Virus record (IMG/VR): IMGVR_UViG_3300033174_000009
From: a virus
Length of the DNA stretch: 39,665 nucleotides
Reading direction: 5' to 3' (one strand)
Positions 128-15,842 of the stretch are shown piece by piece (the first letter of the stretch is position 1; the number at the start of each line of letters is the position of its first letter). Below the pieces are notes generated by a model, which was not told the origin of the DNA, ran no database searches, and worked only from the letters and a program-made list of their open reading frames with translations. A program made the position numbers and the translations under genes.

Positions 128-311
128 ACAAACGTTACTTGACATTTGTAAACAGATAATAACAAGGCTAATCATTACGGCTGAGTTTAAGAAAGTAACT
201 CCGGTTCGTATTAATAAGATAGTTGAATCAAAATACGATGCTAACCTGATCGGGTGGGTTATGACGCTCGATCTATATTACTTGGAAAACCGTGTTAATG
301 TGCCATGTTAG
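1..311 (+). CDS. Hypothetical protein, 3' portion. It continues the ORF that starts at 39409 across the junction (146 aa once circularised).
   Basis: Frame 3 is open from base 3 to the TAG at 309-311. The same frame is open from the ATG at 39409 to the window end. The track only shows the internal-Met piece 72..311. Confidence 0.7.
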   Translation, partial: PDNGVLEVHANSIQEHWNPLYIEVLKQITSMEEPADDHEAMLQTLLDICKQIITRLIITAEFKKVTPVRINKIVESKYDANLIGWVMTLDLYYLENRVNVPC

Positions 312-1752: not shown

Positions 1753-3176
1753 CAGACCTCGCTCGCATACCAATTTCAAGGCGATGCGAAGGCGTATACC
1801 TTCGTTGGTATTACAACGGTTGGCATTACTGGCTATGGTACGCAGGGGAGATAGTTATTCTTACCGAGGGGGAGAAGTACAGAACCGTCAGCACACAACG
1901 AATGACCGTCGGATCAGGTCAGATAGATGAGTTTCAGATCAAGGCCATACGAACTATCATGCTTACCCGTGAGGTGTATATCTTTACGGATTCCGGCTGG
2001 GGTGTGGTTCGTGTCCTGCCGGGCCAGAAGGAGGTGTTCAACAACTTAACCGGCTGGTATGATTTCGAGATAACTATTGTCATCGGATCAAGACATATAT
2101 CCCGTTCAGGATTCTCCCCGGCTATCGTTGTACCAGTTGTCCCACCGTCTTACGAATGGTGTGAAACGGATTGCATAGGGGCGCAAATATGGATGTGTAA
2201 GAACTATGACATTAACTATCCAGGATCGAAGGTTTACGGCGATAACGAGGCTAACCGTGCATTATATGGTGGTCTTTACACTTGGAATCAGATCATGGCA
2301 TCGGGGTTCGTTCCTGCGGGGTGGCACGTCCCGACACTGGCGGAGTGGCAGGAATTAATAACGTGTGCAGGCGGATCATTGGTGGCAGGGGGTGAACTGA
2401 AAGAAATAGGAACGGATCGGTGGAACGCACCTAACACGGGGGCAGTTGATACTTACGGTTTCAAGGCATTGCCGGGTGGTGGGTTTGATGGTTCATATTC
2501 AAGTATTGGCAATTACGGATTTTTCTGGACAGCAACTCCCGGAGGAGGAATGACGGCGAACTTTATTCAGTTAAGTTACAATAACGCACAAGCTGTTAAT
2601 TCAGGGACATTACGTACAAATTATTTGTCGGTCAGGCTTATAAAGGATGAAGTCTGTGAAGAACCGCATTTGATTACAGATGACTGGTTTTTACCTTCAG
2701 CAGACGAACTAAAAGCAATGTTTGATAATTTAGCTTTATATGGATTGGGGAATTTCTCAACAAATCCTTTAGATTGCCTGTATTGGAGTTCTTCAGAATT
2801 TTTTCTTTATACGGCATGGTCCTATAATTTTGTTGAGGGAGGGGATGATTTTAATAGTTCATCAAAGCATGAGATAAATCGTATCAGGCCATGCAGAACA
2901 TTTATTACCAGCACCGGGAATTACCTGTTAAGAGACCAGGGAGAAACCGGGGGACTGGTATTCTATATTGAAGATATTGGAGGAGGTGAAAGCAGGTATT
3001 ATGAAGCTGCAATAAACGATATACCATCCGCAGCATGGAGCAATATTACAGATGTCGATATAGGAACAACGTCAACAGATATTGGAGAGGGACAAAACAA
3101 TACAAATAAGATAATGGCACAGGCAGGACACGTAAATAGTGCAGCGAAAGATTGTGATGATTGGGGAAATGTTTAA
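1749..3176 (+). CDS. Receptor-binding tail-fibre-like protein: N-terminal anchor module, then a FISUMP-type domain, then DUF1566 (Lcl C-terminal)-like segments.
   Basis: FISUMP-like signature: IGAQIWMCKNYD...YGGLYTWNQ...VPAGWHVPTLAEWQEL...GFKALPGGG...GFFWTAT...YLSVRLIKD. DUF1566-like signature: DWFLPSADELKAMF...YWSSSE...AWSYNF..G...RIRPCRTF. The N-terminus is paralogous to ORF 3434..5764. Confidence 0.7.
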   Translation: MTDLARIPISRRCEGVYLRWYYNGWHYWLWYAGEIVILTEGEKYRTVSTQRMTVGSGQIDEFQIKAIRTIMLTREVYIFTDSGWGVVRVLPGQKEVFNNLTGWYDFEITIVIGSRHISRSGFSPAIVVPVVPPSYEWCETDCIGAQIWMCKNYDINYPGSKVYGDNEANRALYGGLYTWNQIMASGFVPAGWHVPTLAEWQELITCAGGSLVAGGELKEIGTDRWNAPNTGAVDTYGFKALPGGGFDGSYSSIGNYGFFWTATPGGGMTANFIQLSYNNAQAVNSGTLRTNYLSVRLIKDEVCEEPHLITDDWFLPSADELKAMFDNLALYGLGNFSTNPLDCLYWSSSEFFLYTAWSYNFVEGGDDFNSSSKHEINRIRPCRTFITSTGNYLLRDQGETGGLVFYIEDIGGGESRYYEAAINDIPSAAWSNITDVDIGTTSTDIGEGQNNTNKIMAQAGHVNSAAKDCDDWGNV

Positions 3177-3447
3177 AATATCACTGACCGCTTTTATGTT
3201 CTCCGCTATCGTGCAGCGGGAACATTCCCTGTTTACATGGTACAGGGTTTTGATTCAGAAACTACCTTGGTGGCTTGCCCGTCCGCTTGGTATGTGTTAT
3301 ATGTGCGTCACGGGACAGGCCTGCCTCTGGTACTTCATTGCAACAAGACGATTTGATTTCATTGAACTGGCTTTTTTTGTTTCTGCCGGGATAGGGCTTT
3401 CGATGGTTTACAATAAGATATACTGCTGGCTAGATGGCAACAATTAG
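3139..3447 (+). CDS. Small integral membrane protein (2-3 predicted TM helices). The real start is possibly the ATG at 3169.
   Basis: Hydrophobic segments ISLTAFMFSAIV, CLWYFIA and LAFFVSAGIGLSMV, plus a PLGMCYMCVTGQ Cys motif. It overlaps both flanking tail genes. Confidence 0.55.
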   Translation: MQRKIVMIGEMFKISLTAFMFSAIVQREHSLFTWYRVLIQKLPWWLARPLGMCYMCVTGQACLWYFIATRRFDFIELAFFVSAGIGLSMVYNKIYCWLDGNN

Positions 3448-5764
3448 CTCCATACGGGTTCAGGTTAACAGATGTACCGAAGGTATATTTTTACGTTGGT
3501 ATCGCAATGGCTGGCACTACTTTCTCTTTTCAAATGGTTATGAGATCAATATGCAAACCGACGAAAAGGATGTGATGACCTCTCAGTTCTTTAGTGTCAT
3601 ATCTAAGATTGAACGCAGCACCCGCATCGGAGCCGACTACTCTTATAAAGTCACACTTCATGGTATCACTGCCGGGAATATCGACGGGTTCAAGGGCTTA
3701 CTGATGGCCGAGATGGTCGAGCAGTATGAAGACGGTGTATGGCGTGAGGTTGATTTAACACGTGGCGATCACACTGTAAAAGAGCCGGGAGAGAACGGGT
3801 ATATTCTGGATTTCGAGATAAGACGTAAAGAGCTGATTGACCAGTCATCCGTTTATCAGAAGTCTTTAAGGTTGTTCATCGGTGACACTCTTTGCGATAT
3901 GGATGAGTCGGAGATCGTGCCTGTTAATAAACAAGTTAATAACATTGCAGAGCTTCAGGATCGACAGACGGATTTCACGACAGGATTCAAGATTCGCAAG
4001 ACCCGCCAGATGCGTGAATTATTTGAACTGTCGGGAGAGGTAGGGGCGAATACTCTCTTTCCCTACCAGGCACAACCAGCCCGACTGATCCAGGATAATA
4101 TTGAGATGATCACTAACGGGAAACTAATCCTTAATCGGGTTGATGATCAGTATTATCACGTGGCCATATATTCAGGGAATATAAGTTTCTTTAAACAGAT
4201 TGAGAATCTAAAACTATCTGATCTTCTATTGGCATCAACTAACCATACATGGGATATTGACACTATGGCCGCTACTCATGCCTGCACGAGCCCGGCGTGT
4301 GATTTCGTGTATCCTTTATGTGAACCGTCAGATGACGGGAGTATTACACCTTATACAGACGATGGCGATAGAATTGAGATGTACGGCGGATGGATATGGC
4401 CATTTATCAAGGTGAAAGCTATTTGGGATGAGATAATCGAAACGGCCGGGTATAGTGTTGTCGGTGGTGATGTTGTTGATAGTGATTTATTCTCAAAGAT
4501 ATATATGCCAATTTCGAGACTGGCATTAAAAAGCACGACTAATAAATATCTGTATTCAAAATACTGGTCAGGTTACTATCAATACCTTGCAGAGGCACGT
4601 TTAGCATTGCCGGGTCAGGTATTAATCACTGGCGATAATGATTTTCTTGACGGTGTTTACTGGACAAAGGTTGCAGGGAAATATACTATCAGGATCACAA
4701 CTTTAACAACCTCGCCTATTCCGACAATCAAGCTATATTCAGGATTGGTTTATAAGGGTGATTTTACAGTAATAACATCAGCTCCATTTATAACATGGAC
4801 AATGACAGAATATGAATATGTCTATGAGGCTGAATCGAACGAGATGCTTGTATTCACAACTACACCTGCAGTGGTGTTTGCATATTATAGCGTATCTATA
4901 ATTAAAATAGAGACTGCATCAGTAGGCTATGGATCAGATTTAGAGCCGAGATATTTACTGCCAGATATGTCACAGGTCGATCTTATCAAGATGATGTGCA
5001 ATCTTTTCGGGTTAGTCCCGGAAGTGAATGAACGAACTAAAAAGATACGGTTCTGGAACTATCAGGAACTTTATGATAATATTGCCATTGCACGGGATTG
5101 GTCAGCTTATCTGTCAGAACGGGATGGCACTACTGAATTTAAGTACGGCGACTACGCACAGAATAATTATCTCAAGTATAAAGTTTCAAATGATGTAATC
5201 ACGGATCAGGGACGTGGTAATATGCAGATAGATGACAGTACTCTGAAAGAAGAAAAGACAATTGTTGAAGTGCCAGTGGCAACCTGTGACGAAGTTGACA
5301 TATTAGATAATAATTTCATTGTTAATGTATCACGTATTGCCTTTAACAAATGGAATGAAAAGGATGAGGTTTATATTTCCAACAAGACCATTGATCCGAG
5401 AATTGTTTACGTGGATTTTGTTAAAGAAATTGCCTCGCCGCCTTATACTAAAAGTCTATGGTTGAGAGGTACTGTCAATCCTATGGACGGCGGTTGGTTC
5501 GGGCCAGAGATCGTCACTCCTAAAAAAGCATCATCTATTGAGGTGGCATTTTCGAGCCTGGTCATCCATTATGCTAATCTGTCCCGTATGCTGACTAAGA
5601 CCAACCTGAGAAAGGCTAAGTTCAACCTGCCTGTTTACGAGGTGGCCGGGCTGCAGCATAATATACCCGTTTACCTGTCTCAATACAAGGCTTATTTCTA
5701 CGTCAATAAGATAACTAACTATGTCGCCGGCAAGCTCTGCACTGTGGAACTGCTAAAACTATAA
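3434..5764 (+). CDS. Large tail or baseplate protein (second receptor-binding candidate) that shares its N-terminal module with ORF 1749..3176.
   Basis: 776-aa ORF. N-terminal RCTEGIFLRWYRNGWHYFLF matches RCEGVYLRWYYNGWHYWLW of the upstream gene. Confidence 0.7.
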   Translation: MATISSIRVQVNRCTEGIFLRWYRNGWHYFLFSNGYEINMQTDEKDVMTSQFFSVISKIERSTRIGADYSYKVTLHGITAGNIDGFKGLLMAEMVEQYEDGVWREVDLTRGDHTVKEPGENGYILDFEIRRKELIDQSSVYQKSLRLFIGDTLCDMDESEIVPVNKQVNNIAELQDRQTDFTTGFKIRKTRQMRELFELSGEVGANTLFPYQAQPARLIQDNIEMITNGKLILNRVDDQYYHVAIYSGNISFFKQIENLKLSDLLLASTNHTWDIDTMAATHACTSPACDFVYPLCEPSDDGSITPYTDDGDRIEMYGGWIWPFIKVKAIWDEIIETAGYSVVGGDVVDSDLFSKIYMPISRLALKSTTNKYLYSKYWSGYYQYLAEARLALPGQVLITGDNDFLDGVYWTKVAGKYTIRITTLTTSPIPTIKLYSGLVYKGDFTVITSAPFITWTMTEYEYVYEAESNEMLVFTTTPAVVFAYYSVSIIKIETASVGYGSDLEPRYLLPDMSQVDLIKMMCNLFGLVPEVNERTKKIRFWNYQELYDNIAIARDWSAYLSERDGTTEFKYGDYAQNNYLKYKVSNDVITDQGRGNMQIDDSTLKEEKTIVEVPVATCDEVDILDNNFIVNVSRIAFNKWNEKDEVYISNKTIDPRIVYVDFVKEIASPPYTKSLWLRGTVNPMDGGWFGPEIVTPKKASSIEVAFSSLVIHYANLSRMLTKTNLRKAKFNLPVYEVAGLQHNIPVYLSQYKAYFYVNKITNYVAGKLCTVELLKL

Positions 5765-5766
5765 CA

Positions 5767-8274
5767 ATGGACGAAGAGAAGAAATATATTATAAACATCG
5801 AATCGAATCTTGACGACTACATCAAGAAAGCTGATGAGGCTCGTAAGAAAGTCGATGAGATGATCGTTGCCAACCTGAAGGTTCAACATTCAGAGACAGC
5901 CACATCGGAAGAGCGGGAAAAATCCAATGCATCACTGCGCAACGCACAGAAAGAATACTCAAATGCAAAGAAGTTAGTCGATCAGGCTGTACTGGCTAAT
6001 AAGGCACAGGCGGGCAGCTATGAACAACTTTACCGTCAGTGGAACCTCGCACAGACGCAACTGAAGTTAATGGGCGATGCCTATACGGTGAATGAGAAGG
6101 GCGTGAGGGTTCTGTCGCAGCGTTATATTGAACAATCGAAAGTCGTCGCTGATGCAAAAAAAGCACTCGACGCATTCGGCAAAGGCGTGAATGACAACCG
6201 ACTGAATGTAGGAAATTATACTGAGAGCATTAAGACTGCACTTGGTGAGATGCGTGTCCTTCCTGGTGCATTGGGTCAGGCTACCGGAGGTATTCAGCGA
6301 ATGATAGTTGCAGCGAAGGCGTTTATAGCTACTCCGCTTGGTGCAATTCTGGCAGCTATCGTCGGGGCAGTCACTCTTCTGGTTAAAGCCTTCAAGAACT
6401 CACAACCGCTAATGGATGCTTTCGAGCGGGTATCATCAGCTATCGCCGCTACCTTTAAGGTCTTACTTGACCGTGTGAGTAATTTCGCTGAGTTTTTAGG
6501 CTCAATCTTTAATAAGGAACTCCGTGAATCCCGCCGTGAGGCGAAAGCCTTAAACGATGAGCTGATAGGCATTGAAGAGACAATGAGCCGAAGGGAGAAG
6601 CGAGAGTTAAGACGAGCCAATAAGAAGGGACTATTTGAAGAGATCAAGGAAGAGGCTGCCGCTGCCAGAGACCTGACGAAAGCACAACAGGATTTAGAAG
6701 ATTCAGAGATTGCGTTTATTCAGCGTAAGGCCGAAATGAGAAGGCAGATCGAAGAGTTGTTTTCCTCAACTAAAGATGAGAACTTGACCGATGCTGAAAG
6801 GATAGTAAATCTTGACAAGGCTATTGCGCTGACAAAAGAGATGACAGCCATTGAAGTCGGGTTTGCTAAAGAGCGGGCAAGGATAAGTCAGGAGAGGGTA
6901 GTTCAGGGTAACTCGACACGTGAAGAGCTGCGGGCAAATGAAGAAGCGCAGGCAGCAGCTACCGAGGCAGAGGCGCAGGGATTTAAGGAGATAAAGAGAT
7001 TGGGTTCAGAAAGGTTTTCGCTTATCAAAAGGATTACTGATGAACAGCGCAAGGCTATTGGTGAGCAAAGCAAGATCGAAACAGAGAACTTCAAACAAAC
7101 TGAGGCACGACTAAAAAAAGAGATCACATTTGTTGAAGCCCGCAAGAAACTCGCAAAAGAGAATCTTGATGCACAGATTAAAGCAATCGAAGATGAGCGC
7201 AAGGCACGAACTGAAGGACTGACAGGTGACGAATTACTGACTGTCGAGAGGCAGTTTCAGGATCGTATGCTTCAACTCCGGTATGATTACATCAATCAGG
7301 TATCGTCAGCCGAGTCAGATGCAACGGCCAAACAGATACAGCTCAGGGAACTTCAGTATCAGGAAGAGCTGAGGTTGGCCGGAGAGAATATCGAAAAGAA
7401 GAAACAACTCGAAATAGATTACCAGGCGGATCTTGTTCAGATCAATCAGGCCGCATCCATCGAAGCACAACGTAACCTGCAGGCTGAGATTGATGCTTAC
7501 AAGGTAGCGCAGGAGAGTAAGAAACAATCACAGATCGAATACGATGAATGGAACCGGGAGCGTGAGCTGATTAATCAGGAGAATGAGTTTCAGATACGGG
7601 AGCTAAGAAATGAATATGAGTTCAACATTGAGCGTGACCGGCTTGAAGCTAAAAGACTGTTAGAGATCGAAGCAGCCGAACGCACCGGGGCAGATATTAA
7701 TCTTATTAACGAGAAATATTCAGAGGCACGCAAGCAGATAGACCGGGCGGAGCTTAATGCTAAACTGGAACTTGCTTCAGGGTTTGCCGGTAATCTGGCT
7801 CAGATATTCGGAGAGCAGACGGCGATAGGTAAGGCGGCGGCCGTTGCACAGACAGCTATTAATACCTATTCATCAGCACAGAAGAGTTATGACGCACTGG
7901 CTGGGATTCCTATTGTCGGCCCTGCTTTGGGTGCTGTGGCCGCTGCCGCTGCCGTTGTTGCAGGGATAGCTAATGTAAAGAAGATTCTGTCTGTCAAATC
8001 AGGACTGCCAGGTGACTCAGGCGGTGGCGCACCTACATCTATATCCGCTTCAGCACCGGCACAGAGGGCTTTCGCACCGGCGGCACAATCGACATTATTC
8101 ACTCAGCCGCAACTGTCGCAACAGCAACTTAATGCACTACCTAACCAGCCTATGCTGACGGCTGAGGATATTGCAGGCGCAGTGGCTAAACTGCCTGCTC
8201 CTGTTGTAACGGTTGAAGATATTAACGCCCGGACGGCTCAGTCACGGGCCGTTGAAGTAAGATCAGTGATATGA
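5767..8274 (+). CDS. Tape-measure-like protein (long coiled coil with hydrophobic segments and a Gly/Ala-rich C-terminal region)
   Basis: 835 aa, highly charged with a heptad-like E/K/Q/A/L composition. Hydrophobic stretches GAILAAIVGAVTLLV and IVGPALGAVAAAAAVVAGIA. An internal or ejection protein is an alternative. Confidence 0.6.
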   Translation: MDEEKKYIINIESNLDDYIKKADEARKKVDEMIVANLKVQHSETATSEEREKSNASLRNAQKEYSNAKKLVDQAVLANKAQAGSYEQLYRQWNLAQTQLKLMGDAYTVNEKGVRVLSQRYIEQSKVVADAKKALDAFGKGVNDNRLNVGNYTESIKTALGEMRVLPGALGQATGGIQRMIVAAKAFIATPLGAILAAIVGAVTLLVKAFKNSQPLMDAFERVSSAIAATFKVLLDRVSNFAEFLGSIFNKELRESRREAKALNDELIGIEETMSRREKRELRRANKKGLFEEIKEEAAAARDLTKAQQDLEDSEIAFIQRKAEMRRQIEELFSSTKDENLTDAERIVNLDKAIALTKEMTAIEVGFAKERARISQERVVQGNSTREELRANEEAQAAATEAEAQGFKEIKRLGSERFSLIKRITDEQRKAIGEQSKIETENFKQTEARLKKEITFVEARKKLAKENLDAQIKAIEDERKARTEGLTGDELLTVERQFQDRMLQLRYDYINQVSSAESDATAKQIQLRELQYQEELRLAGENIEKKKQLEIDYQADLVQINQAASIEAQRNLQAEIDAYKVAQESKKQSQIEYDEWNRERELINQENEFQIRELRNEYEFNIERDRLEAKRLLEIEAAERTGADINLINEKYSEARKQIDRAELNAKLELASGFAGNLAQIFGEQTAIGKAAAVAQTAINTYSSAQKSYDALAGIPIVGPALGAVAAAAAVVAGIANVKKILSVKSGLPGDSGGGAPTSISASAPAQRAFAPAAQSTLFTQPQLSQQQLNALPNQPMLTAEDIAGAVAKLPAPVVTVEDINARTAQSRAVEVRSVI

Positions 8275-8501
8275 CATTATTCGAGCGGATAAACGAGAAT
8301 ATTGACCGGGTGAAGAAAGATGTTTGCATCGGGTTAATTCCTTGCGCCACTCTCAAACACTGGCAGATTTACGCACGGTATGATTCTTACCGCAAGGCAG
8401 GGCACAATGTAAGCAAATCGGCATTGTTTACAAGTTTTGATTTTGACGTTAGTGATCGGCACGTGATGAACATAAAAAAAGAGATGGAGACAGAGATATG
8501 A
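8271..8501 (+). CDS. Small hypothetical protein, possibly helix-turn-helix
   Basis: 76 aa with ATGA overlaps at both ends. The C-terminal segment VSKSALFTSFDFDVSDRHVMNIKKEM resembles an HTH recognition region. Weak call. Confidence 0.5.
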   Translation: MTLFERINENIDRVKKDVCIGLIPCATLKHWQIYARYDSYRKAGHNVSKSALFTSFDFDVSDRHVMNIKKEMETEI

Positions 8502-9259
8502 AAGTGTTGTTTTATCCTGATCCCCCAACTCAGCAACCAGGTCATTCATTGAGTAAGACGATAAGATATTTCCAGATTATAGGTTATGAATTAACAAATG
8601 ATATTAACTCAGATTGGGAGATTGCAGTACATTGGAACTACAACGATCTTAAAGATACAGATAGATTATTTCTTGAAGATAACCGAATTGTACTTAACAG
8701 AGATTTAAGAAATGTAAATAAAGATTACGTTGATGAGATTTTCACTCAGTCTTTTGGATATAGCTCAATGGCAGACACCGATAAATTTGGGTTTTGTATT
8801 CGTAAGAGTAATCGGCAATCAGCACATGACGGGGTCATTATGAAAACCCCATGCGAAAGGGAACCGGGATATATTTACCAGTTATTTCTTGACAACAGGG
8901 ATTCAATAAGCACGGTTTATGACATACGCATCCCCGTATTTATGGGACGTATTCCATTGATATTCATTAAAAGTCGTGGTATTGAAGGATGTTTCGAGAA
9001 TACCCTTTCAGATAATAAAAATTACTGGATCGAAAAACCTGAAGATTGTTTATATCATTGGGAAATTGATTTGATACAGCTATTTTGCGAATCAATGGGC
9101 TTTGATCTTGGTGAGATAGATGCGATACGGGATAACTCAACAGGAAAATTGTATCTGATTGATGTTAATGATATTCCCGGAGGGGCTGTTTTTGATCATA
9201 TCAAAGACGGAAAGGAAGTTGAAAAGAGACTGGCATATTATCTAAACGAACTGTTATGA
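8498..9259 (+). CDS. ATP-grasp fold enzyme (carboxylate-amine ligase type)
   Basis: Order of ATP-grasp-like elements: FCIRKSNRQSAHDGV, YIYQLFLD, VYDIRIPVFMGRIPLIF, and LGEIDAIRDNSTGKLYLIDVNDIPGG (the C-terminal D/E-x-N-x-x-PG metal-binding motif). Confidence 0.6.
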   Translation: MKVLFYPDPPTQQPGHSLSKTIRYFQIIGYELTNDINSDWEIAVHWNYNDLKDTDRLFLEDNRIVLNRDLRNVNKDYVDEIFTQSFGYSSMADTDKFGFCIRKSNRQSAHDGVIMKTPCEREPGYIYQLFLDNRDSISTVYDIRIPVFMGRIPLIFIKSRGIEGCFENTLSDNKNYWIEKPEDCLYHWEIDLIQLFCESMGFDLGEIDAIRDNSTGKLYLIDVNDIPGGAVFDHIKDGKEVEKRLAYYLNELL

Positions 9260-10173
9260 TAGCCATACTTACAGAAGAGAGTTCAGTATTCGCCGCATCA
9301 CATTTGGCACGAGCAATGAAAGCGAATCTATATGTTATCCTGCCGAGGTATAATGATATACTTGACGGGGGAGTAAATGGTATATTTTGGAAGGATAACA
9401 ATCTAATAACTGCAAAGAATATTATAATAATCGGTTATGCAGCTCTTAAAAAGATCGCTTCATCTATTGATTGTTTTGAAACAATTGCCTTTATTGCATC
9501 TGAATCAACGATATGTCGTGAAAGGAAATGGGTTAATAATTTCTTATCCCGGAATAAAATAGTCACTTACGCTATGCCTGATATGATCCCTTTTCTGGGA
9601 GTTGAAATAATCCCGGCATATCAGACAATGATAATCAATCCAATACCTCGTGTAAATAATAATATTCTGACTGTCGCACATAGTCCCCGAAACGGAGAGA
9701 AAAGCAAGGTCAAGGGTACGGATTATATTAATGAAATAGTTAGGGGGCTAAAGATGAAGCATCAATTTAATTACATATTTATCAAAAATTACCCGCATAA
9801 AGAATGTCTCAAACTGAAAGCCCAGTCAGATATATTCATTGACCAACTTATTTACGGGAACCCTGACGTCCCACAGCAACGCTGGGGCGAAGAGATAACC
9901 TATGAAGGTGGTTTGGGTAAATCAGGCATTGAGGCGATGTTATTGGGATGTTGTGTTATAACAGGCGGACGTAAGCCGGATACTGAAAGGTATTTTCCAC
10001 CACCTCCGATTATATGGACTGATTATGATAATTTTAAGGATCATCTTGATGCATTAATAAAGGATAAAGACTTAATATCATTATGTAAAAGGGGACAACA
10101 GAAATGGGCTGAGACATATCTTAACCCTGAATTTGTAAGTCATCACATAACGAGGCATATATGGGAGAGATAG
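9256..10173 (+). CDS. Glycosyltransferase, GT-B (group 1-like)
   Basis: C-terminal donor-binding-like motif EGGLGKSGIEAMLLGCCVITGG. Sits in the glycosyltransferase operon. Confidence 0.55.
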   Translation: MIAILTEESSVFAASHLARAMKANLYVILPRYNDILDGGVNGIFWKDNNLITAKNIIIIGYAALKKIASSIDCFETIAFIASESTICRERKWVNNFLSRNKIVTYAMPDMIPFLGVEIIPAYQTMIINPIPRVNNNILTVAHSPRNGEKSKVKGTDYINEIVRGLKMKHQFNYIFIKNYPHKECLKLKAQSDIFIDQLIYGNPDVPQQRWGEEITYEGGLGKSGIEAMLLGCCVITGGRKPDTERYFPPPPIIWTDYDNFKDHLDALIKDKDLISLCKRGQQKWAETYLNPEFVSHHITRHIWER

Positions 10174-10835
10174 CAATATATCGTTCGATATTTGGTGGTT
10201 ATGATAGAGTTTTCCCGGCTTGCTTTCAGGATGAGGCAGATAACTACTTGGTTACTGATAGGGCTATAAAAATTGACGGGTACAGGATAATAATAATAAA
10301 CGATCCTATTCCTAATTTACGCAGAGAAAGTCGTCGTTATAAGATGCAGCCGTGGAATTATCTCCCGAAATATAAGTATTATATCTACTTGGATGGCACT
10401 ATTGAAATGATCGTATCGCCTAAAAAATTGATAGATGAATATATAAACGGATTTGATCTTGCAGTACTTAAGCATCCATGGAGAAATTGTATTTATGATG
10501 AGGCTGAGATATGTAAGAAAATGGGGCTTGCGACTGAGGCGAAGATTGACAGACAGGTTAAGATAATGCGGAATGCTGGTTACCCTGAGAATAACGGGCT
10601 GACCGAAAATGGTGTTATGATCTGGCGTAATACGATCCAAAATCAGATTTTTGGAAGCCGATGGTGGAACTTTTATATGGAGCACACTCAGAGGGATCAG
10701 TTGAGCTTTTGTTTTATAGCATGGGAAATGGCAATAAAATACAATATAATCGAAACCGAGATAAGAAAAGACTCGGATCTTTTTAAATTTACAGACCATG
10801 ATCGCACTCTTAACGCCGACCGGAAACCGTCTTGA
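10161..10835 (+). CDS. DUF616 (TOD1/MUCI70-like) putative glycosyltransferase
   Basis: N-terminal IYRSIFGGYD, then LKHPWRNCIYDEAEIC, ENGVMIWRN and RDQLSFCF. These occur in the order typical of DUF616 proteins. Confidence 0.6.
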   Translation: MGEIAIYRSIFGGYDRVFPACFQDEADNYLVTDRAIKIDGYRIIIINDPIPNLRRESRRYKMQPWNYLPKYKYYIYLDGTIEMIVSPKKLIDEYINGFDLAVLKHPWRNCIYDEAEICKKMGLATEAKIDRQVKIMRNAGYPENNGLTENGVMIWRNTIQNQIFGSRWWNFYMEHTQRDQLSFCFIAWEMAIKYNIIETEIRKDSDLFKFTDHDRTLNADRKPS

Positions 10836-11538
10836 ACAATTCAGGCGGTGTGCCGAATTTATGAAACGTCAGACCTACGACGGGAAGGTCGTGTGGGTTA
10901 TTGTTGATGATTGCGTACCGAAAACGACAGATAATGTAACGGAATATTTCCGGGACAACTGGATCATTCACAAGGTCTATCCTCGCCCGGCATGGACATA
11001 TAACCAGAACACTCAGGGGCGCAACATGGAGGCAGGACTGAATGCTGTTATGAACTATAAGCCTGAAGCGATCTTTGTTATTGAGGACGACGATTATTAT
11101 AAATCTATCTATCTCGAACGCATGATGGCTAATTTTGGAGATTACTGGGCTATCGGAGAGACACGGACGATCTATTATAACGTGGCTTACCGAAGGTATC
11201 TTGTTAATGGGAATGATGCTCATGCCAGCCTGTTCCAAACAGCTATCCGCCCGGAGGCTGTTGAGTATATGATGCGGTCAAACGGAAGTCTGTTTATAGA
11301 TGCGGAGTTCTGGAGCAAGGTTCCGAATAAAAAACTGTTTCACGAAGGCAATCTGTCAATCGGGATCAAGGGAATGCCCGGACGCAGGGGGATAGGCTAT
11401 GGTCACCGTGAGGCAATGCGAATGAATGACGATTGCAATATGAACTATCTCAAATCAATTATCGGAGAGGACTATAAATTTTACGAAGGATGTTTCCAAC
11501 AGTACAAGAAGTCAAAAGATATTCTGACCAAATGGTAA
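10798..11538 (+). CDS. Glycosyltransferase, GT-A fold (family 2-like)
   Basis: IALLTPTGNRLEQFRRCAEFMKRQTY...VWVIVDDC, followed by the DxD-type motif FVIEDDDYY. Confidence 0.65.
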   Translation: MIALLTPTGNRLEQFRRCAEFMKRQTYDGKVVWVIVDDCVPKTTDNVTEYFRDNWIIHKVYPRPAWTYNQNTQGRNMEAGLNAVMNYKPEAIFVIEDDDYYKSIYLERMMANFGDYWAIGETRTIYYNVAYRRYLVNGNDAHASLFQTAIRPEAVEYMMRSNGSLFIDAEFWSKVPNKKLFHEGNLSIGIKGMPGRRGIGYGHREAMRMNDDCNMNYLKSIIGEDYKFYEGCFQQYKKSKDILTKW

Positions 11539-12221
11539 CGGGAATAATGGTCACGCATAACACGGAGGCACTTGCCCGACGTGCTTATGAATCAGTCAGG
11601 AGGTTTCATCCGGATATGCAGATGATAATTATCGATGGGTCTGATCAGGGTGATCCCTGCCGGGAATACATAAAAAGCCTTTCAAGCGATATAACAACTG
11701 TTGGATTGTCCCCAACAAATATCGGACACGGGCGGGGCATGGATGCAGCTATAAGAATGTGCAAGACTGATTTTGCTCTTATCTTTGATTCGGATATTGA
11801 GATGATAAAAAGTCCTTTAGACCTGATGCTGTCAATGGTGGAACCAGATACCTATGGGGTCGGCTACGTCGAGAAGACCGGATACGACGGGTTTGAATAC
11901 GGGTCTAAGCCGTGGCATAAGAACCAGGGATATATGATGATGCTACACCCGTTCTTTCATCTCTTACAGGTTAAAGAGTATTTCAGCTATCATCCTTATA
12001 CACATCATGGCGCACCCTGCTTTAAGACCGCTCTTGACATACATAGAAAAGGATTAACAGAGAAAGTGATTAAGATTCTTCCGGGGCTTGGACATACATC
12101 CGGCAAGGGCTGGACATGGGACGCTGTTAAGCCTCTTTGGGTTATTCACGAGACGGCCGGGACACGCAAGATGAGGCGCAAGAAAGGACTTGATGAGATT
12201 GAGCAGGGATGGGACAGGTAA
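11532..12221 (+). CDS. Glycosyltransferase family 2-like. The track ORF begins at 11490; the likely start is the ATG at 11532.
   Basis: GIMVTHNTEALARRAYESVRRF...MIIIDGSDQGD and LIFDSDIEM (DxD). The 11532 start overlaps the upstream stop by 7 nt. Confidence 0.7.
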   Translation: MVTGIMVTHNTEALARRAYESVRRFHPDMQMIIIDGSDQGDPCREYIKSLSSDITTVGLSPTNIGHGRGMDAAIRMCKTDFALIFDSDIEMIKSPLDLMLSMVEPDTYGVGYVEKTGYDGFEYGSKPWHKNQGYMMMLHPFFHLLQVKEYFSYHPYTHHGAPCFKTALDIHRKGLTEKVIKILPGLGHTSGKGWTWDAVKPLWVIHETAGTRKMRRKKGLDEIEQGWDR

Positions 12222-12712
12222 GTATCATCGGACTCGGCCCCTCATGGAAACTCTACCAGGGAGGATTCTCAATAGGTGTGAATGATGTATGGCGCAATGT
12301 TAAGACTGATGTTATTGTCTGTCTTGATTATGAGAAGATATTCACACCTGACCGGTTAAGAGTAATAAAAGAAAGCACTCCGCAGGCGTTCTATTCACAT
12401 ATTGTTAATTGGGATTACCGAAAAGATTTTCGTAAAGTGAATATTATCCCTGGTTATCATACTTTTATTGATCTTAAAAGACCGGGTTATTACAAGAGCT
12501 ACTGCTCTCCGTTTGTCGCCTGTCAGATCGCTTATAAAGAATACGGGGCTGATGAGATACATCTCTTCGGGGTTGACCTTACCAACCACCCGCATCTTGA
12601 CCAGAAACTTTGCGCTAAAATCATTGAACACTTCACCGCTCTGCAGAAGGCTCTCAATGAGGTAGGGGCGAAAATCGTTGTTCACGGGGAGGGAATTTTA
12701 AAGTCTCTCTGA
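12209..12712 (+). CDS. DUF115 (MptE/Maf-like) putative glycosyl or nonulosonate transferase
   Basis: SIIGLGPS...GVNDVW...DVIVCLDYE...GADEIHLFGVDL resembles the DUF115 core. Weak call. Confidence 0.4.
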   Translation: MGQVSIIGLGPSWKLYQGGFSIGVNDVWRNVKTDVIVCLDYEKIFTPDRLRVIKESTPQAFYSHIVNWDYRKDFRKVNIIPGYHTFIDLKRPGYYKSYCSPFVACQIAYKEYGADEIHLFGVDLTNHPHLDQKLCAKIIEHFTALQKALNEVGAKIVVHGEGILKSL

Positions 12713-12780
12713 TTTTACTGAAGTATTTAGTTCATTACATTATTCTGCTACCTACGTTAAATTTATCAAAAATTTAGCGC

Positions 12781-12969
12781 ATGGACAATCTACTCGACGT
12801 TTATCCTTATTACTTGGCTGATTTTTATCTGTACTACATCCTTGGGTACACAGAATTAGCTAATTCCCTCATTGCCTCCACGCTCGAAATAACAATGCCT
12901 AACACTCCTGACACATCAACTCAGCCGATGTGGTGGCCGATAATTGAACCAGGAATACCTGCCCCATGA
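12781..12969 (+). CDS. Small hypothetical protein
   Basis: 62-aa ORF whose stop overlaps the protease start (ATGA at 12966). Confidence 0.5.
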   Translation: MDNLLDVYPYYLADFYLYYILGYTELANSLIASTLEITMPNTPDTSTQPMWWPIIEPGIPAP

Positions 12970-14096
12970 GTGCGGTACTTAAAATCTACGGAGACATAGG
13001 TGAATCATCCGGCATGGATGAGCTTATAGGCTATGAGACAGTATCAGCCAAACAGGTATCGGAGTTTCTTGACCAGCATAAATCAGAACGTAAGATCGTT
13101 GTACGTATCAACTCCCGAGGCGGTGACGTGCAGGAAGGCTGGGCTATTTATGATCTACTGGTTAATTCAGGCAAGAAAATAAAAACCATTGGCGAAGGGA
13201 AAATCTATTCTATCGCAACTATCATATTTCTTGCAGGTGAAGAGCGTGAGATATACTCCAATGCTGACGGGCTCATACACAACCCGTTTATCCCGCCTTA
13301 CACACTGGCGGATCAATACGAAGCTGATGATCTGGAAAAGATCGCTGAATCACTGCGGCAGGAGGAATCGAAAATACTTCAGTTCTACGCACAGAAGACC
13401 GGGGCGGAAGAGTCACGTCTGGCCGAACTGATGAAAGAGGACACTAAACTATCAGCTCAGGACATGGTCGATCTGGGCTTCGCAACGAAAATCATTGAGC
13501 CAGTTATGGCATTTGCATATCTAAAACCAAATAAATTTATTATGGACGAAAAAGCCTTTTTTGAAAAGCTGGGGAGCACGTTAGACAATGCGCTTGCCAG
13601 AATGAAAAACTTTTCGAGGCTCGAAACTGTTGACCAGACCTTGAAAGACAAGGACGGCAAGGAGTTCAAGCTCGAGAAAGAAACCGGAGCACCGGCAGTG
13701 GGAGACAAAGCCTCTCCTGACGGGACTTATGTAATGTCCGACGGCAAGACGATCGTTGTTGCCGAAGGAGCGATCACTGAGATCAGGGAGAAGACTGAAG
13801 ACAAGTCTGAACTCGAGCTTGCTAACGAGAAGATCGCACAACTGGAAGCTGCCAACCAGCAACTGACCGAGAGGGTCACCGCTATGGAGGCCGAGAAGCC
13901 TGACCTTGTCGCTGCACAGGCATCAGCAAAGAAAGCTGAGACCGATGCAAAAACACTCTACGACGAGCTATCGAAGATCAAGAATGAATGGAAGCCTGAC
14001 GGGCGTACCAAGTTCTCAACCGCTGACAAAGTGGGAAGCATTGATCTTGCCCGTGTAAGGGAACTGAACGAGAAACTTAAATCAAAATCTGAATAA
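12966..14096 (+). CDS. Prohead protease (ClpP/S14 type) fused to a coiled-coil scaffold domain
   Basis: VVRINSRGGDVQEGWAIYDLL...GKIYSIATIIFLAGEER...GLIHNP carries the Ser and His catalytic context. The C-terminal 150 aa is charged coiled coil (ELELANEKIAQLEAANQQLTERVTAMEAEK). It sits directly upstream of the capsid gene. Confidence 0.85.
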   Translation: MSAVLKIYGDIGESSGMDELIGYETVSAKQVSEFLDQHKSERKIVVRINSRGGDVQEGWAIYDLLVNSGKKIKTIGEGKIYSIATIIFLAGEEREIYSNADGLIHNPFIPPYTLADQYEADDLEKIAESLRQEESKILQFYAQKTGAEESRLAELMKEDTKLSAQDMVDLGFATKIIEPVMAFAYLKPNKFIMDEKAFFEKLGSTLDNALARMKNFSRLETVDQTLKDKDGKEFKLEKETGAPAVGDKASPDGTYVMSDGKTIVVAEGAITEIREKTEDKSELELANEKIAQLEAANQQLTERVTAMEAEKPDLVAAQASAKKAETDAKTLYDELSKIKNEWKPDGRTKFSTADKVGSIDLARVRELNEKLKSKSE

Positions 14097-14098
14097 AT

Positions 14099-15199
14099 AT
14101 GCCTATCATCCCCAAGAGTGTCACTTCGCCCTCGTGCGGAAACACTATCAACCTCGACAACCTGCACTTCACCCCGGATGAACTCCGTTCGCTGAACGAG
14201 CTGGTTGTTGAAGCTGTCTTATCAGCACCGGAACTCTCCGAGTTTCACACCCTCGTCACCGGTATCAAGAACGACAAGCGTATCGGCATCATACCCGGTT
14301 CATTCGGGCTGGTAGGCCGGGCCGCTCAGAGTTGCGATCCCGTGCCTCACTGCTACGAACTTCCTGCTATCGAAAAGACATGGGAGCCTCGTTACCTGGA
14401 GATCATCATTGATATGTGTATTGATGAGCTTGCTGATTCAATGATGAAGCTCGCCGTAAAATGCGGAACCGATGTCTTTGATCTGACGAAAACAGAAATC
14501 TTCACATTCATTCAGAACATCCTCGAAGGTGACATTAAGAAGATGGTCCTTCGTAATGCCTGGTTCGGAGACAAAAACGCTGCCAACGTACCTGGCGGAG
14601 TACTTACTCCGGGTGTTGATCCGGCTTTCTTCAATGTAATTGACGGATTTTTCGTACAGATGGCCGCTATCTATGCAGCTAACCCGCTTCAGGTAGTTGC
14701 AATGCCGGGTAATACACAGGCTACTTACGCACTTCAGAACTCAGTCGCTACTCCGATACTTACAATGGGAGCTGTTAATAACGTTATTGACAGTGCTATC
14801 AGTGAGCTTCAGCAGCAGCCTGACCGTGTTCTTCTGGTCACCCGTTCGGTTTTTGACCGTTTGCGCAGGGCTTTACAGGCTGTCGGAACCGCATTTCAGG
14901 ATTACCGGCTGATGGTCAACGGTATTGAGTTCGCTACATGGGACGGGATAAAGATGTATTCCATTCCTCTGTGGGATCAGTGGATCAGAGCTTTTGAGAA
15001 CGACGGCACACGCTGGAACGATCCTCACAGGGTTGTTTATACAAGCGTCTCCAACCTGAATATTGGTATGGTTTGCACATCATTATTTGAAAACATTAAT
15101 TCGTTCTACGATCCTCGCAGTCGTTACAACAGGATTGAAGCCATTGATGCCTTCGACGCAAAGATTCTCGACGACAGGCTTCTGATGGTAGGACGATAG
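14099..15199 (+). CDS. Major capsid protein (HK97-fold expected)
   Basis: 366-aa ORF immediately after the protease-scaffold gene. Size and position are canonical. No decisive motif seen by eye. Confidence 0.7.
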   Translation: MPIIPKSVTSPSCGNTINLDNLHFTPDELRSLNELVVEAVLSAPELSEFHTLVTGIKNDKRIGIIPGSFGLVGRAAQSCDPVPHCYELPAIEKTWEPRYLEIIIDMCIDELADSMMKLAVKCGTDVFDLTKTEIFTFIQNILEGDIKKMVLRNAWFGDKNAANVPGGVLTPGVDPAFFNVIDGFFVQMAAIYAANPLQVVAMPGNTQATYALQNSVATPILTMGAVNNVIDSAISELQQQPDRVLLVTRSVFDRLRRALQAVGTAFQDYRLMVNGIEFATWDGIKMYSIPLWDQWIRAFENDGTRWNDPHRVVYTSVSNLNIGMVCTSLFENINSFYDPRSRYNRIEAIDAFDAKILDDRLLMVGR

Positions 15200-15212: not shown

Positions 15213-15842
15213 ATGACTATCGGATGTAATCAAATCGTTGACTGTATCCTGAAGAACTGCGATAACATGGTGCAGGGTATTAAGGATACGGTATATTTCA
15301 TCAATCACGAGCACGTTGACAAAGACAACTGCACGTTCGATCCTGAGAATCCTCTTCTTCTGACGCAACTTGTTCTGAAGACTGTTTCCCCGCCCGCTTA
15401 CGCTTATTGCATATCAGGTTATAACCAGTCCAACGAGCATAGCGTTGCAATGGTCAAGAGGCGTTATCAAAAGGTGTGGGATCACAACCTGATCTTCCGG
15501 GTGTTCGATAACACTCCCGAAGTGAAGGCATGGGTCAATGATGTGGCTAACTCCCGTTTTCTCGTTATTATCGAGAATAACTATAACAAAGCCGGTTTGG
15601 GCCGCACTGTTTATGAGGTTCTCGGTTGGGATATGGGACTGGAACTGAACGCCGCTGAACGCAACCCGAACGATGAAGAGATGATGGGTGCATGGCTGCT
15701 GACTGCCGGATGCAGTGATTCGCTGAAAGAATCGCTTCCTCCGCTGACGCTGTTTGTGACAAGTATTGAGCTGACACGTGCCGCTGTTGGTTCGCTTCTT
15801 GCCCCCTGCTGCCCTGATGAGCTGACCCCTGAACCTACGTAA
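15213..15842 (+). CDS. Hypothetical virion protein (possibly tail tube or decoration; function unsupported)
   Basis: 209-aa ORF directly after the capsid gene, carrying the best SD-like site in the genome. Confidence 0.7.
   Translation: MTIGCNQIVDCILKNCDNMVQGIKDTVYFINHEHVDKDNCTFDPENPLLLTQLVLKTVSPPAYAYCISGYNQSNEHSVAMVKRRYQKVWDHNLIFRVFDNTPEVKAWVNDVANSRFLVIIENNYNKAGLGRTVYEVLGWDMGLELNAAERNPNDEEMMGAWLLTAGCSDSLKESLPPLTLFVTSIELTRAAVGSLLAPCCPDELTPEPT

Follow-up and report, generated by a model that had tools for sequence, protein, structure and literature searches.

A fixed slot beside the capsid genes carries exchangeable sets of glycosyltransferase genes in an uncultured phage clade

The glycosyltransferase-rich cassette at positions 8271-12712 of the phage genome analysed here (IMG/VR record IMGVR_UViG_3300033174_000009; the window is the whole stretch of 39,665 nucleotides) is a fixed slot throughout an uncultured phage clade, which is a new result, and its frame is constant while its content is exchangeable. 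The genome is complete, about 39.5 kb long with a 127-bp terminal repeat, and comes from an uncultured phage whose host is probably a member of the Bacteroidales; within this clade, capsid proteins share 48-81% identity. We collected 37 distinct complete cassettes, spanning 2.8-8.0 kb, and all 37 showed the same order: tape measure gene, Mor gene, one to eight variable genes, ORF5-like, ORF6-like and ORF7-like genes, protease and capsid protein. When 52 loci with room upstream were retrieved by the capsid protein alone, homologues of ORF7, ORF6 and ORF5 were present in 51, 49 and 47 of them, respectively. As the same layout recurs in more than 50 related contigs, this gene arrangement is not due to chance. 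As to function, we put the chances at about even that the cassette carries out cytoplasmic, late glycosylation of a virion component.

The preliminary description of this DNA had placed an overlapping chain of seven ORFs between a tape-measure-like gene and the capsid genes, and the ORF list, motifs and flanks confirmed it, with every motif quoted for the cassette proteins found in the translations. The slot is bounded upstream by the tape-measure-like protein (5767..8274, + strand, 835 aa), which has two hydrophobic segments and matched PHROG tape-measure families at 1.6e-15, 5.8e-13 and 2.6e-6; homologues of it precede the cassette in relatives. The ATGA overlap of the first ORF on its stop codon, as had been noted, is present, and the seven + strand ORFs follow with overlaps, counted from that stop, of 4, 4, 4, 13, 38, 49 (or 7) and 13 nt, where 49 nt holds if the sixth gene is read as its longest ORF and 7 nt if it starts at an ATG at 11532. 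Downstream lie a small ORF (12781..12969, + strand, 62 aa) with an acidic and aromatic product containing a Thr/Ser/Pro stretch, whose stop overlaps the start of a ClpP-type head maturation protease gene (12966-14096, + strand; PHROG 4.6e-42), then the major capsid protein gene (14099-15199, + strand; PHROG 38780, 1.2e-52) and, at 16369, the portal gene; the protease and capsid genes form the downstream boundary. No terminator-like site was found on the + strand from the tape-measure gene to the protease. Late expression of the cassette is suggested by the gene overlaps only. An AT-rich stretch, claimed by eye for 8500-10800, does exist, but it ends near 10500: windowed GC was 0.35-0.40 over 8501-10500 and 0.44-0.49 in the flanks, and per-gene GC was 0.357-0.387 for ORF2 to ORF4 (GC3 0.31-0.40) and 0.43-0.46 for ORF5 to ORF7.

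ORF1 (8271..8501, + strand, 76 aa) is the conserved first gene of the slot, with a homologue in all 37 complete cassettes. It had been guessed to be a small helix-turn-helix protein, and comparison with the Mor/C activators of phage Mu bears this out in part through its orthologues, 13 of 39 of which matched Pfam Mor weakly (best E 2.4e-4), and in part through hhalign, which aligned the ORF1 family with gp61 of Bacteroides phage BS-TP3, annotated as 'Mor domain' and encoded at the same genomic position (probability 96%, E 3.8e-9). Unlike these, the copy in this genome had no match in Pfam, and the activator role is a predicted one. None of its Cys, Ser or Thr residues is conserved among orthologues. 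ORF1 is probably a transcription activator and not an enzyme, standing outside the chemistry of the cassette.

ORF2 (8498..9259, + strand, 253 aa) opens the variable block. Its description as an ATP-grasp enzyme was upheld by the AlphaFold model (pLDDT 93.9, pTM 0.90), for which Foldseek matched ArgX/LysX (6e-7), PsnB, MdnC, DdlB, TTLL6, RimK and ITPK1 in the PDB, with E about 1e-6 for ArgX/LysX, PsnB, DdlB and RimK; viral ATP-grasp proteins matched likewise. Pfam gave only a sub-threshold match (Ins134_P3_kin, 1.6e-3), and the invariant residues R211, D212, D222 and N224, in a DVN..PG motif, align to the Mg/ATP site of ITPK1. The closest of these structural neighbours modify peptides or proteins (ArgX/LysX acts on LysW, PsnB and MdnC are RiPP macrocyclases, and RimK and TTLL6 belong here too), which favours a reading in which the cassette acts on the small acidic ORF upstream of the head protease and not on a major virion protein, by analogy with glycocins, ATP-grasp RiPPs or LysW-type carriers. 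Many relatives carry acidic Cys-bearing ORFs of 45-69 aa beside the cassette, at the place of the 62-aa ORF of this genome, glycocin peptides are S-glycosylated by GT2 enzymes, and the B12-radical-SAM enzymes and methyltransferases of relatives are common in RiPP clusters. We nevertheless give this reading only a slight chance, as the ORF2-type ATP-grasp occurs in just 5 of the 37 cassettes while the small ORFs are common and fall into several unrelated sequence types, so that the two do not co-occur; leader-peptidase and transporter genes are absent, the strongly acidic products differ from known glycocins, and several of the small ORFs are perhaps not genes. The many glycosyltransferases, together with the NDP-sugar epimerase of relatives, indicate an oligosaccharide instead.

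The other two variable genes of this genome encode predicted glycosyltransferases. ORF3 (9256..10173, + strand, 305 aa) had no match in Pfam, PHROG or NCBIfam, and its assignment to the GT-B fold was borne out by structure: the AlphaFold model (pLDDT 95.3, pTM 0.92) was closest in Foldseek to the A. minor glucoside-glucosyltransferase 8xsh (4e-9), followed by PimA, BshA, PglA and T4 AGT (1y6f, E 1.9e-6). Its homologues are rare, numbering 26 among 5.8 billion clusters, with PF13524 on the most distant of them, and occur in 4 of 37 cassettes. ORF4 (10161..10835, + strand, 224 aa), with homologues in 5 of 37 cassettes, is the DUF616 protein it was taken for, a TOD1/MUCI70 glycosyltransferase-like protein matching PF04765 at 1.1e-18 (68 bits against a cut-off of 21.4) and PHROG 26101 'glycosyltransferase' at 6.4e-20.

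The three genes at the 3' end are conserved. ORF5 (10798..11538, + strand, 246 aa; homologues in 35 of 37 cassettes) is a glycosyltransferase of the GT-A fold in which an E-D-D-D motif is invariant, and its start at 10798 is correct because the N-terminus is invariant too. The earlier GT-A/GT2 calls hold for both it and ORF6, marginally for ORF5 (Pfam GT2 3.2e-5, 24.4 bits against a cut-off of 23.3); the best PDB match of the ORF5 family profile was the human GT43 glucuronyltransferase GlcAT-S (E 0.044), with which it shares ITPT..R, WI.V.D and DDD motifs. ORF6 (11490..12221, + strand, 243 aa from 11490) matched Pfam GT2 at 5.5e-13 (49.6 bits, residues 19-182), and since this match begins at residue 19 the ATG at 11532, giving 229 aa, is the likelier start. 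Its homologues in L002 and L004 are 68-73% identical; an ORF6-like gene precedes the last gene in most cassettes and is missing from a few. ORF7 (12209..12712, + strand, 167 aa), the conserved last gene, is a small MptE/DUF115-like, GT42-sialyltransferase-like protein. The DUF115/Maf-like call is weak for the protein itself (Pfam MptE-like 8.1e-4, under the cut-off) and better founded for its family, in which 6 of 31 close and 20 of 128 distant members matched MptE-like (best 2.1e-7) and no competing Pfam family appeared among these 31 and 128; it should be borne in mind that MptE-like/DUF115 also includes a pterin diphosphokinase. The family profile further matched the GT42 sialyltransferases CstII/CstI at 1e-3, sharing the motifs G.G.SL and S..A..lG..eI.L.G.D. 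Maf proteins, the nonulosonic-acid transferases of flagellin, are much longer and multi-domain, whereas ORF7 is a single domain lacking the rest of Maf, and the family (628 representatives, nearly all about 170 aa) also includes solitary genes, so the argument that Maf-like transferases act on flagellins carries little weight. One member is fused to a GT2 and another to a methyltransferase, the latter in an early-gene-like region of another phage, away from structural genes. As members stand alone or are so fused, the family need not act on virion proteins.

That the distant methyltransferase fusion sits near a Dam-like gene is one of several points for DNA as the acceptor, a reading in which glycans would be placed on modified phage bases before packaging and protect against restriction; T-even phages and other viruses whose hydroxymethyl- or hydroxy-pyrimidines are glycosylated are the model. 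Among phage glycosyltransferases, enzymes of the GT-A and of the GT-B fold alike are known to act on DNA, T4 alpha-glucosyltransferase is a structural neighbour of ORF3, the location just before the head genes suits action shortly before packaging, and multi-sugar DNA glycans are known (PMC13326640). However, known pathways require a hydroxylated base (PMC13326640), and among those ORFs of the genome that were scanned with Pfam or PHROGs there was no hydroxypyrimidine-making enzyme (thymidylate-synthase homologue, dCMP hydroxymethylase or TET/JBP enzyme), an N6/N4 methylase being the only DNA-modification gene. The likeness to T4 AGT is that of GT-B enzymes in general, with several non-DNA enzymes ranking higher, and up to eight variable genes, with sugar C-methyltransferases and GT11 fucosyltransferases among them, would be unusual for DNA glycans. 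We regard DNA hypermodification as very improbable.

Across the clade the variable genes belong to families that build or tailor glycans and encode several GT2, GT11, GT32 and GT25-like enzymes, NDP-sugar epimerase/dehydratase, sugar C-methyltransferase, B12-radical-SAM, O- and other methyltransferases; a more distant locus has a PIG-L deacetylase and a hexapeptide acyltransferase besides. Sugar-nucleotide synthesis genes, said to be lacking in this genome, are indeed absent from it, although relatives do have the epimerase/dehydratase and C-methyltransferase. Variable content was uncoupled from capsid identity (Spearman 0.02, p 0.63, 528 pairs), 74% of the pairs at 75-80% capsid identity had no variable gene in common, and in 33 genomes mean GC fell from structural genes (0.422) to core glycosyltransferase genes (0.401) to variable genes (0.371; Wilcoxon p <1e-6). 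The reshuffled content and low GC strongly support the mosaic acquisition proposed earlier for this genome and make it general across relatives. As each relative's slot holds a different mix of genes, the slot looks like the phage counterpart of a bacterial serotype locus. It is perhaps merely a permissive site for cargo genes, because the same slot in the distant cultured relative BS-TP3 holds unrelated cargo, namely a thioredoxin-domain protein, a 1060-aa protein and a SusD-like protein.

The same hypervariability and low GC, seen also in bacterial surface-polysaccharide loci, as well as variable families typical of O-antigen and capsule loci (GT2, GT11, GT25-like, GT32/Caps_synth, epimerase), speak for remodelling of the host surface. 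In that case the soluble glycosyltransferases would act at the cytoplasmic face on host lipid-linked LPS, capsule or Bacteroidota general O-glycan intermediates, altering or blocking the surface glycan during infection; this could prevent superinfection or the trapping of progeny on debris, and the variable block would follow host glycan diversity. Cytoplasmic glycosyltransferases of the O-antigen and capsule pathways are likewise soluble or peripheral, and undecaprenyl-phosphate-linked intermediates of the host, on the inner side of the membrane, could serve soluble enzymes as acceptors just as well, which counts against a virion acceptor. Such a role has often been proposed for glycosyltransferase clusters of lytic cyanophages (PMC12801897), and also for a structural-module glycosyltransferase of Cellulophaga phages (PMC11946311). 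Against it, none of the 37 cassettes has Gtr-type membrane proteins, a flippase, a polymerase or an initiating phosphoglycosyl transferase; the complete genome is devoid of an integrase and of any lysogeny module, which leaves no long-lived carrier cell to show a new serotype. Late expression, if it holds, would leave little time before lysis to replace a surface glycan, and the 3' trio stays invariant although the variable blocks beside it differ widely, which suggests that the acceptor is conserved and belongs to the phage. On balance we consider host-surface remodelling unlikely.

For glycosylation of the virion, the acceptor is inferred from position and from the absence of membrane or export proteins, an integrase and a DNA-hydroxylation route. 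Nor was a chromosomal prophage copy found across 185,579 species genomes. None of the seven cassette proteins of this genome has a hydrophobic segment and no enzyme among 309 distinct cassette proteins has more than one, therefore the cassettes hold no flippase, polymerase or polytopic transferase. In the mechanism we propose, soluble cytoplasmic enzymes co-transcribed with morphogenesis genes would assemble a short glycan, specific to the strain, on one of the virion's components. Acceptor recognition, and the laying down or capping of a common part of the glycan, would fall to ORF5, ORF6 and ORF7, while ORF2, ORF3 and ORF4 would extend and tailor the glycan, the ORF2 ATP-grasp possibly decorating a sugar carboxylate with an amino acid or amine; the donors would all be drawn from host nucleotide-sugar pools. 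Placement in the structural operon lends circumstantial support, and there is a precedent in mycobacteriophages, whose own glycosyltransferases, as relayed in later papers, attach sugars to capsid and tail-tube subunits (Freeman et al. 2023, via PMC12363180, PMC12619734). Counting against this reading, the conserved capsid C-terminus bears no Ser/Thr-rich extension of the kind glycosylated there.

Among known systems, bacterial O-antigen and capsule loci share with the cassette a fixed slot with conserved flanks, variable glycosyltransferases and sugar-tailoring enzymes, GC below that of the neighbouring DNA and a gene content independent of core phylogeny, whereas the phage slot is viral, lies inside a morphogenesis operon and lacks an initiating phosphoglycosyl transferase, flippase, polymerase, chain-length regulator and membrane proteins. 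Giant-virus glycosylation clusters are clade-specific. Those of chloroviruses and Megavirinae form a cytoplasmic machinery, independent of the host, that supplies capsid or fibril proteins with glycans, and virus-encoded glycosyltransferases, methyltransferases and sugar-modifying enzymes are the shared element (PMC9614988); they belong, however, to viruses of eukaryotic hosts, consist of unrelated enzymes and also make nucleotide sugars, while the 39.5 kb tailed phage genome would depend wholly on host precursors. The lytic cyanomyoviruses P-SSM2, S-SCSM1 and S-SCSM2R are virulent phages with multiple glycosyltransferases and NDP-sugar epimerases (PMC12801897), and the Bacteroidota phage phi18:1 of Cellulophaga has a single glycosyltransferase inside its structural module (PMC11946311); the likeness is one of gene content and placement, and neither paper describes a slot that is fixed across a clade and combines a conserved frame with an exchangeable block. 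The mycobacteriophages Che8, Corndog and Myrna are tailed phages whose glycosyltransferases decorate virion proteins from host sugar donors, some of these systems being in virulent phages. By the same relayed accounts, they possess few glycosyltransferases, and mass spectrometry has proven their glycans at the C-termini of capsid and tail-tube proteins, whereas the present candidate system comprises six enzymes, and up to about 10 in relatives, in a conserved frame around an exchangeable block, carried by an uncultured clade that probably infects Bacteroidales.

The seven overlapping plus-strand ORFs of the cassette (ORF1 to ORF7, 8271-12712) are situated between the gene of an 835-aa tape-measure-like protein (5767-8274, +) and that of a ClpP-type head protease, which starts 3' of the cassette at 12966 (+). 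The ORF listing bore out this layout and the ATGA overlap of the ORF1 start with the tape-measure stop, both proposed in the preliminary description, and successive cassette ORFs overlap from ORF1 onward by 4, 4, 13, 38, 49 (or 7) and 13 nt. The alternative value concerns ORF6 (11490-12221), for which a start at 11532 is more likely than one at 11490, because its GT2 match begins only at residue 19; the long form of ORF5 (10798-11538) is correct, since 39 orthologues show no variation in the first 25 residues. Through its overlaps the cassette is linked to the tail and head genes, and no terminator-like hairpin was found on the plus strand from the tape-measure gene to the protease; late expression was proposed in the preliminary description, a timing that we too infer. 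Windowed GC analysis recovered the AT-rich stretch suspected earlier (GC 0.35-0.40 over 8501-10500 vs 0.44-0.49 in the flanks), but limited it to ORF2-ORF4, which show GC of 0.357-0.387 and GC3 of 0.31-0.40, while ORF5-ORF7 have a GC like that of their structural neighbours.

ORF1 (8271-8501, +), described earlier as a possible small HTH protein, is probably a Mor-like HTH activator and not an enzyme. The window protein itself matched no Pfam family and the ORF1 profile retrieved nothing from the PDB; its support comes from the orthologues, 13 out of 39 of which weakly match Pfam Mor (best 2.4e-4), and from the family profile, which aligned by hhalign (96%, E 3.8e-9) with gp61, a protein annotated 'Mor domain' at the same genomic position in the Bacteroides phage BS-TP3. 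ORF1 was also considered as a glycocin-type acceptor and rejected, as its Cys, Ser and Thr are not conserved and the protein is Mor-like. The three genes that follow form the variable block of the window, and the fold or family proposed for each of them held. ORF2 (8498-9259, +) is an ATP-grasp enzyme: its AlphaFold model (pLDDT 93.9) returned only ATP-grasp enzymes among the top 50 PDB matches listed by Foldseek (E 6e-7 to 1.4e-5), led by ArgX/LysX, PsnB/MdnC, DdlB, TTLL6, RimK and ITPK1. The Mg/ATP-binding residues K103, K158, R211, D212, D222 and N224 are invariant in 31 homologues, and its DVN..PG motif aligns with IDIN..PG of ITPK1, while its scores lie below the curated Pfam cut-offs (Ins134_P3_kin, 18.4 bits vs 23; ATPgrasp_YheCD, 13.6 vs 26.8). 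ORF3 (9256-10173, +) is a GT-B glycosyltransferase, as all 50 PDB matches of its model (pLDDT 95.3) with E <= 0.001 are GT-B enzymes (best 4.3e-9), the closest being the glucoside-glucosyltransferase of A. minor, an elongating enzyme. Only 26 homologues were present in a large cluster database, PF13524 being carried by the most distant one alone, and even with the 26-sequence profile no match to a curated family (Pfam, NCBIfam, PHROG) or to a PDB sequence was obtained. ORF4 (10161-10835, +) belongs to the TOD1/MUCI70 (DUF616) family, PF04765 (1.1e-18; 68 bits vs a gathering score of 21.4), the biochemical activity of which is not settled. Single-sequence PDB searches with ORF2, ORF3, ORF6 and ORF7 yielded nothing useful.

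The remaining three genes constitute a conserved core. ORF5 (+) and ORF6 (+), taken earlier for two GT-A/GT2 enzymes, both pass the gathering score of PF00535 (23.3 bits) and carry DxD motifs, ORF5 just above it with 24.4 bits and ORF6 with 49.6 bits (5.5e-13) and the motif FDSDIE. In ORF5 the residues E96-D97-D98-D99 are invariant among 39 orthologues, and the best PDB match of its family profile was the GT43 glucuronyltransferase GlcAT-S (E 0.044), with shared motifs in the N-terminal half only. ORF7 (12209-12712, +) had been called DUF115/Maf-like, of which the first part stands at the level of the family: at E <= 0.01 or 0.001, MptE-like matches were obtained for 6 close members out of 31 and for 20 distant ones out of 128, the best at 2.1e-7, and no other Pfam family competed among the members scanned, but the window protein scores below the PF01973 cut-off (19.6 vs 34.6 bits) and the Maf architecture is absent. 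A Maf flagellin glycosyltransferase was rejected for this 167-aa single-domain protein, which lacks the full architecture of a long protein with several domains; the Pfam and PHROG scans found no flagellin or nonulosonic-acid synthesis genes in the window. The family profile reached GT42 enzymes (CstII, 1e-3; CstI, 0.019; LOS sialyltransferase, 0.1), while the close-set profile found nothing in the PDB. Since the family matches MptE-like proteins and its profile reaches CstII and CstI, we read ORF7, on this profile similarity, as a putative small sialyltransferase-like transferase, the least certain of the six enzyme assignments, which could possibly use a CMP-activated acid sugar. A tblastn search of 50,697 phage records retrieved nothing for the ORF7 protein. 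Its family comprises 628 representative clusters, nearly all of about 170 aa and almost all unannotated; as a phage protein family, this small MptE/GT42-like group is widespread. Fusions were seen in two members, to a GT2 domain in one and to a methyltransferase in the other.

Distant ORF7-like proteins were noticed in four other contexts (L149:3380-6665, L150:8001-10557, L152:5989-6726 and L153:2029-2697 among the retrieved loci), namely as the GT2 fusion, located directly after a tape-measure-like and a 74-aa gene, with a PIG-L deacetylase and a hexapeptide acyltransferase downstream of it; as the SAM methyltransferase fusion in an early-gene-like region, where its neighbours are another MptE-like gene and a Dam-like gene; as a lone, divergent gene adjoining a ClpP head protease; and as a lone gene adjoining RecT in a phage whose capsid protein is of SU10 type. 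The occurrence of ORF7-like genes alone or methyltransferase-fused in other phages calls for caution on the role of ORF7.

About 140 related loci were gathered by searches seeded with the protease, ORF7 and the capsid protein, so that presence of the cassette in relatives, a check suggested in the preliminary description, could be followed: the slot is kept across the clade and its content varies. Among loci retrieved by the capsid protein only and having enough upstream sequence, homologues of ORF7, ORF6 and ORF5 were found in 51, 49 and 47 of 52, respectively. Because 51 of these 52 carry the ORF7 homologue, the clade carries the cassette as a fixed trait (capsid identity 48-81%). All 37 distinct complete cassettes, which span 2.8-8.0 kb, have the same order, in which the tape measure is followed by the Mor-like gene, one to eight variable genes and the ORF5-like, ORF6-like and ORF7-like genes, then often by a small ORF and finally by the protease and the capsid protein. 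The block of the window (ATP-grasp, GT-B, DUF616) recurs in merely two or three other genomes. Other blocks encode different GT2 enzymes and transferases of GT11 fucosyltransferase type, GT32 and GT25-like, together with tailoring enzymes (NDP-sugar epimerase/dehydratase, sugar C-methyltransferase, B12-radical-SAM enzyme, other methyltransferases) and occasional GIY-YIG homing endonucleases. Variable content was unrelated to capsid identity (Spearman 0.02, 528 genome pairs), and 74% of the pairs at 75-80% capsid identity had no variable gene in common. Across 33 genomes GC fell from 0.422 in structural genes to 0.401 in core glycosyltransferase genes and 0.371 in variable genes. As content is uncoupled from capsid identity and GC drops in the variable genes, the cassette bears a signature of recombination resembling that of bacterial O-antigen and capsule loci, and the mosaic acquisition suspected earlier is strongly supported. 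In a comparison of the receptor-binding gene with cassette type, the gene of about 770 aa upstream of the tape measure is uninformative, since it belongs to one cluster in most genomes. Genes of GIY-YIG/NUMOD3 homing endonucleases (cluster c33) were seen inside the cassettes of several relatives at L057:7998-8549, L061/L062 and L094, the L061 insertion lying between the ORF6-like and ORF7-like genes; such insertions may promote cassette exchange.

In the gap that separates the final cassette gene from the head protease we also noticed small acidic, aromatic ORFs, the stop of which often overlaps the protease start (window 12781-12969; in relatives e.g. L071:1485-1890, L079:2336-2633 and L028:7947-8114). 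Many relatives share one type, 'MDETCC..AY...PMEDFLY..EY..YNED....LIYYQLFEC', some with two or three copies in tandem, and the 62-aa ORF of the window belongs to another sequence type, which has an NTPDTSTQP stretch. These ORFs could be head-assembly factors or acceptor/carrier peptides. Production of a modified peptide or small carrier by the cassette would accord with these ORFs upstream of the protease and with the protein ligases among the structural neighbours of the ATP-grasp enzyme; it is nevertheless highly improbable, as ATP-grasp is present in only 5 of the 37 cassettes and shows no co-occurrence with a particular peptide type.

The window has an identical 127-bp direct repeat at its two ends (1-127 and 39539-39665), which indicates a complete genome of about 39.5 kb, either circularly assembled or terminally redundant. 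Plus-strand genes include the small and large terminase (37133-38801), the tail proteins (305-8274), the major capsid protein (14099-15199), two head-region proteins of 209 and 176 aa (15213-16372), the portal (from 16369) and the endolysin (from 21699). The large-subunit match of the terminase spans an ORF of 384 aa, the end of which is overlapped by 16 nt by a 208-aa ORF without family match (37647-39412 for the two); they are probably two genes and not a frameshift, because BS-TP3 has a comparable pair (438 aa then 178 aa). A 475-aa tail-region protein (1749-3176, +) with Fib_succ_major (5.4e-24) and Lcl_C domains, typical of surface proteins in Fibrobacter and Bacteroidota, is likely a receptor-binding protein. 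BS-TP3 is the nearest cultured relative, with a capsid identity of only 30%; in 50,697 phage records the capsid protein found two distant records only (30-32% identity), and the region 8000-13000 had no DNA match. Of four matches in species-representative genomes, three were short or phage-sized contigs binned into Bacteroidales MAGs and none was a chromosomal contig copy. No integrase was found in the complete genome either. The phage is therefore probably virulent, with a probable host among the Bacteroidales, those of the MAGs GCA_022865305.1 and DATKUO01 being candidates. BS-TP3 (PQ571276.1; L144:11503-17063, L143:5-1264) keeps the gene order with unrelated cargo, a thioredoxin-domain protein, a 1060-aa protein and a SusD-like protein, and has no glycosyltransferases between the Mor-like gene and the head protease. 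Since it holds unrelated cargo there, the position is an old, general cargo slot of the wider phage group, which this clade has filled with glycan genes. The minus strand carries replication and recombination genes (primase-helicase, N6/N4 DNA methylase, SNF2 helicase, RecT, PD-(D/E)XK nuclease). Also on this strand, in the early region, a weak hexapeptide-repeat acyltransferase match (23856-24272, E 0.0014, below cut-off) was noticed, which could be a sugar or glycan acetyltransferase working with the cassette, or a chance match. The gene content bears on glycosylation of DNA by the cassette, for which the known pathways require hydroxymethyl- or hydroxy-pyrimidines (PMC13326640). The Pfam and PHROG scans of the ORFs found no ThyA homologue, dCMP hydroxymethylase or TET/JBP, so that the precursor pathway is absent, and the N6/N4 methylase is the sole DNA-modification gene found; we regard this explanation as highly improbable.

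No hydrophobic segment was found in the seven cassette proteins of the window and no polytopic membrane protein among 309 distinct cassette proteins, which also include no flippase, polymerase or initiating transferase. Because no cassette protein looks like a polytopic membrane protein, the enzymes should act in the cytoplasm. The best reading, to which we give an even chance of being correct, is that the conserved trio and the variable block glycosylate a virion component. ORF5-ORF7 would recognise a phage-owned acceptor and build or cap the common part of the glycan, the variable block would extend and tailor it with host nucleotide sugars, and the ATP-grasp enzyme may amidate a sugar acid. 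Remodelling of host lipid-linked glycans agrees with the enzyme families and their hypervariability, but is a poor fit with a non-integrating phage, with the absence of any membrane component and with the invariant core, and appears unlikely to us; cargo with some other role takes the probability left over. Going further than virion glycosylation itself, we tentatively propose, with somewhat less than even confidence, that this clade of uncultured tailed phages has its own 'serotype locus', in which the three-enzyme core glycosylates the virion and the exchanged block diversifies the glycan. If so, closely related capsids would wear different sugars, and by analogy with bacterial O-antigen variation the phage surface would be under diversifying selection, with host lectins or defences, grazers and adhesion to particles or mucus as candidate selective agents. 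If the cassette coats virions, self-glycosylation would amount to a rapidly diversifying trait shared by a whole clade of phages from one major bacterial order, and its enzyme sets would match a small O-antigen locus in richness; it would bear on phage-host recognition, environmental persistence, phage therapy and immunogenicity, and the soluble, acceptor-directed glycosyltransferases would form a natural toolbox. The conserved frame with its exchangeable block makes the question testable by block swaps, whichever target the enzymes have.

To our knowledge, the only phages proven to glycosylate their virions with enzymes of their own are a few mycobacteriophages, in which this alters antibody recognition. 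Seroconverting prophages of Gtr type are temperate and possess an integrase and the membrane proteins GtrA, GtrB and a polytopic specific transferase, whereas the cassette comes without integrase, transmembrane segments or chromosomal prophage copies. Glycosyltransferase clusters form part of the gene content of lytic cyanomyoviruses (PMC12801897), and Cellulophaga phages have a single glycosyltransferase in the structural module (PMC11946311). In the literature searched we met with no account of a slot that is fixed across a clade, lies in a phage morphogenesis operon and combines a conserved enzyme frame with an exchangeable low-GC block. In mycobacteriophages, the phage's own enzymes are reported to glycosylate capsid and tail-tube proteins (Freeman et al. 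2023, as cited in PMC12363180 and PMC12619734); if the present cassette likewise coats virions, self-glycosylation would not be confined to actinophages.
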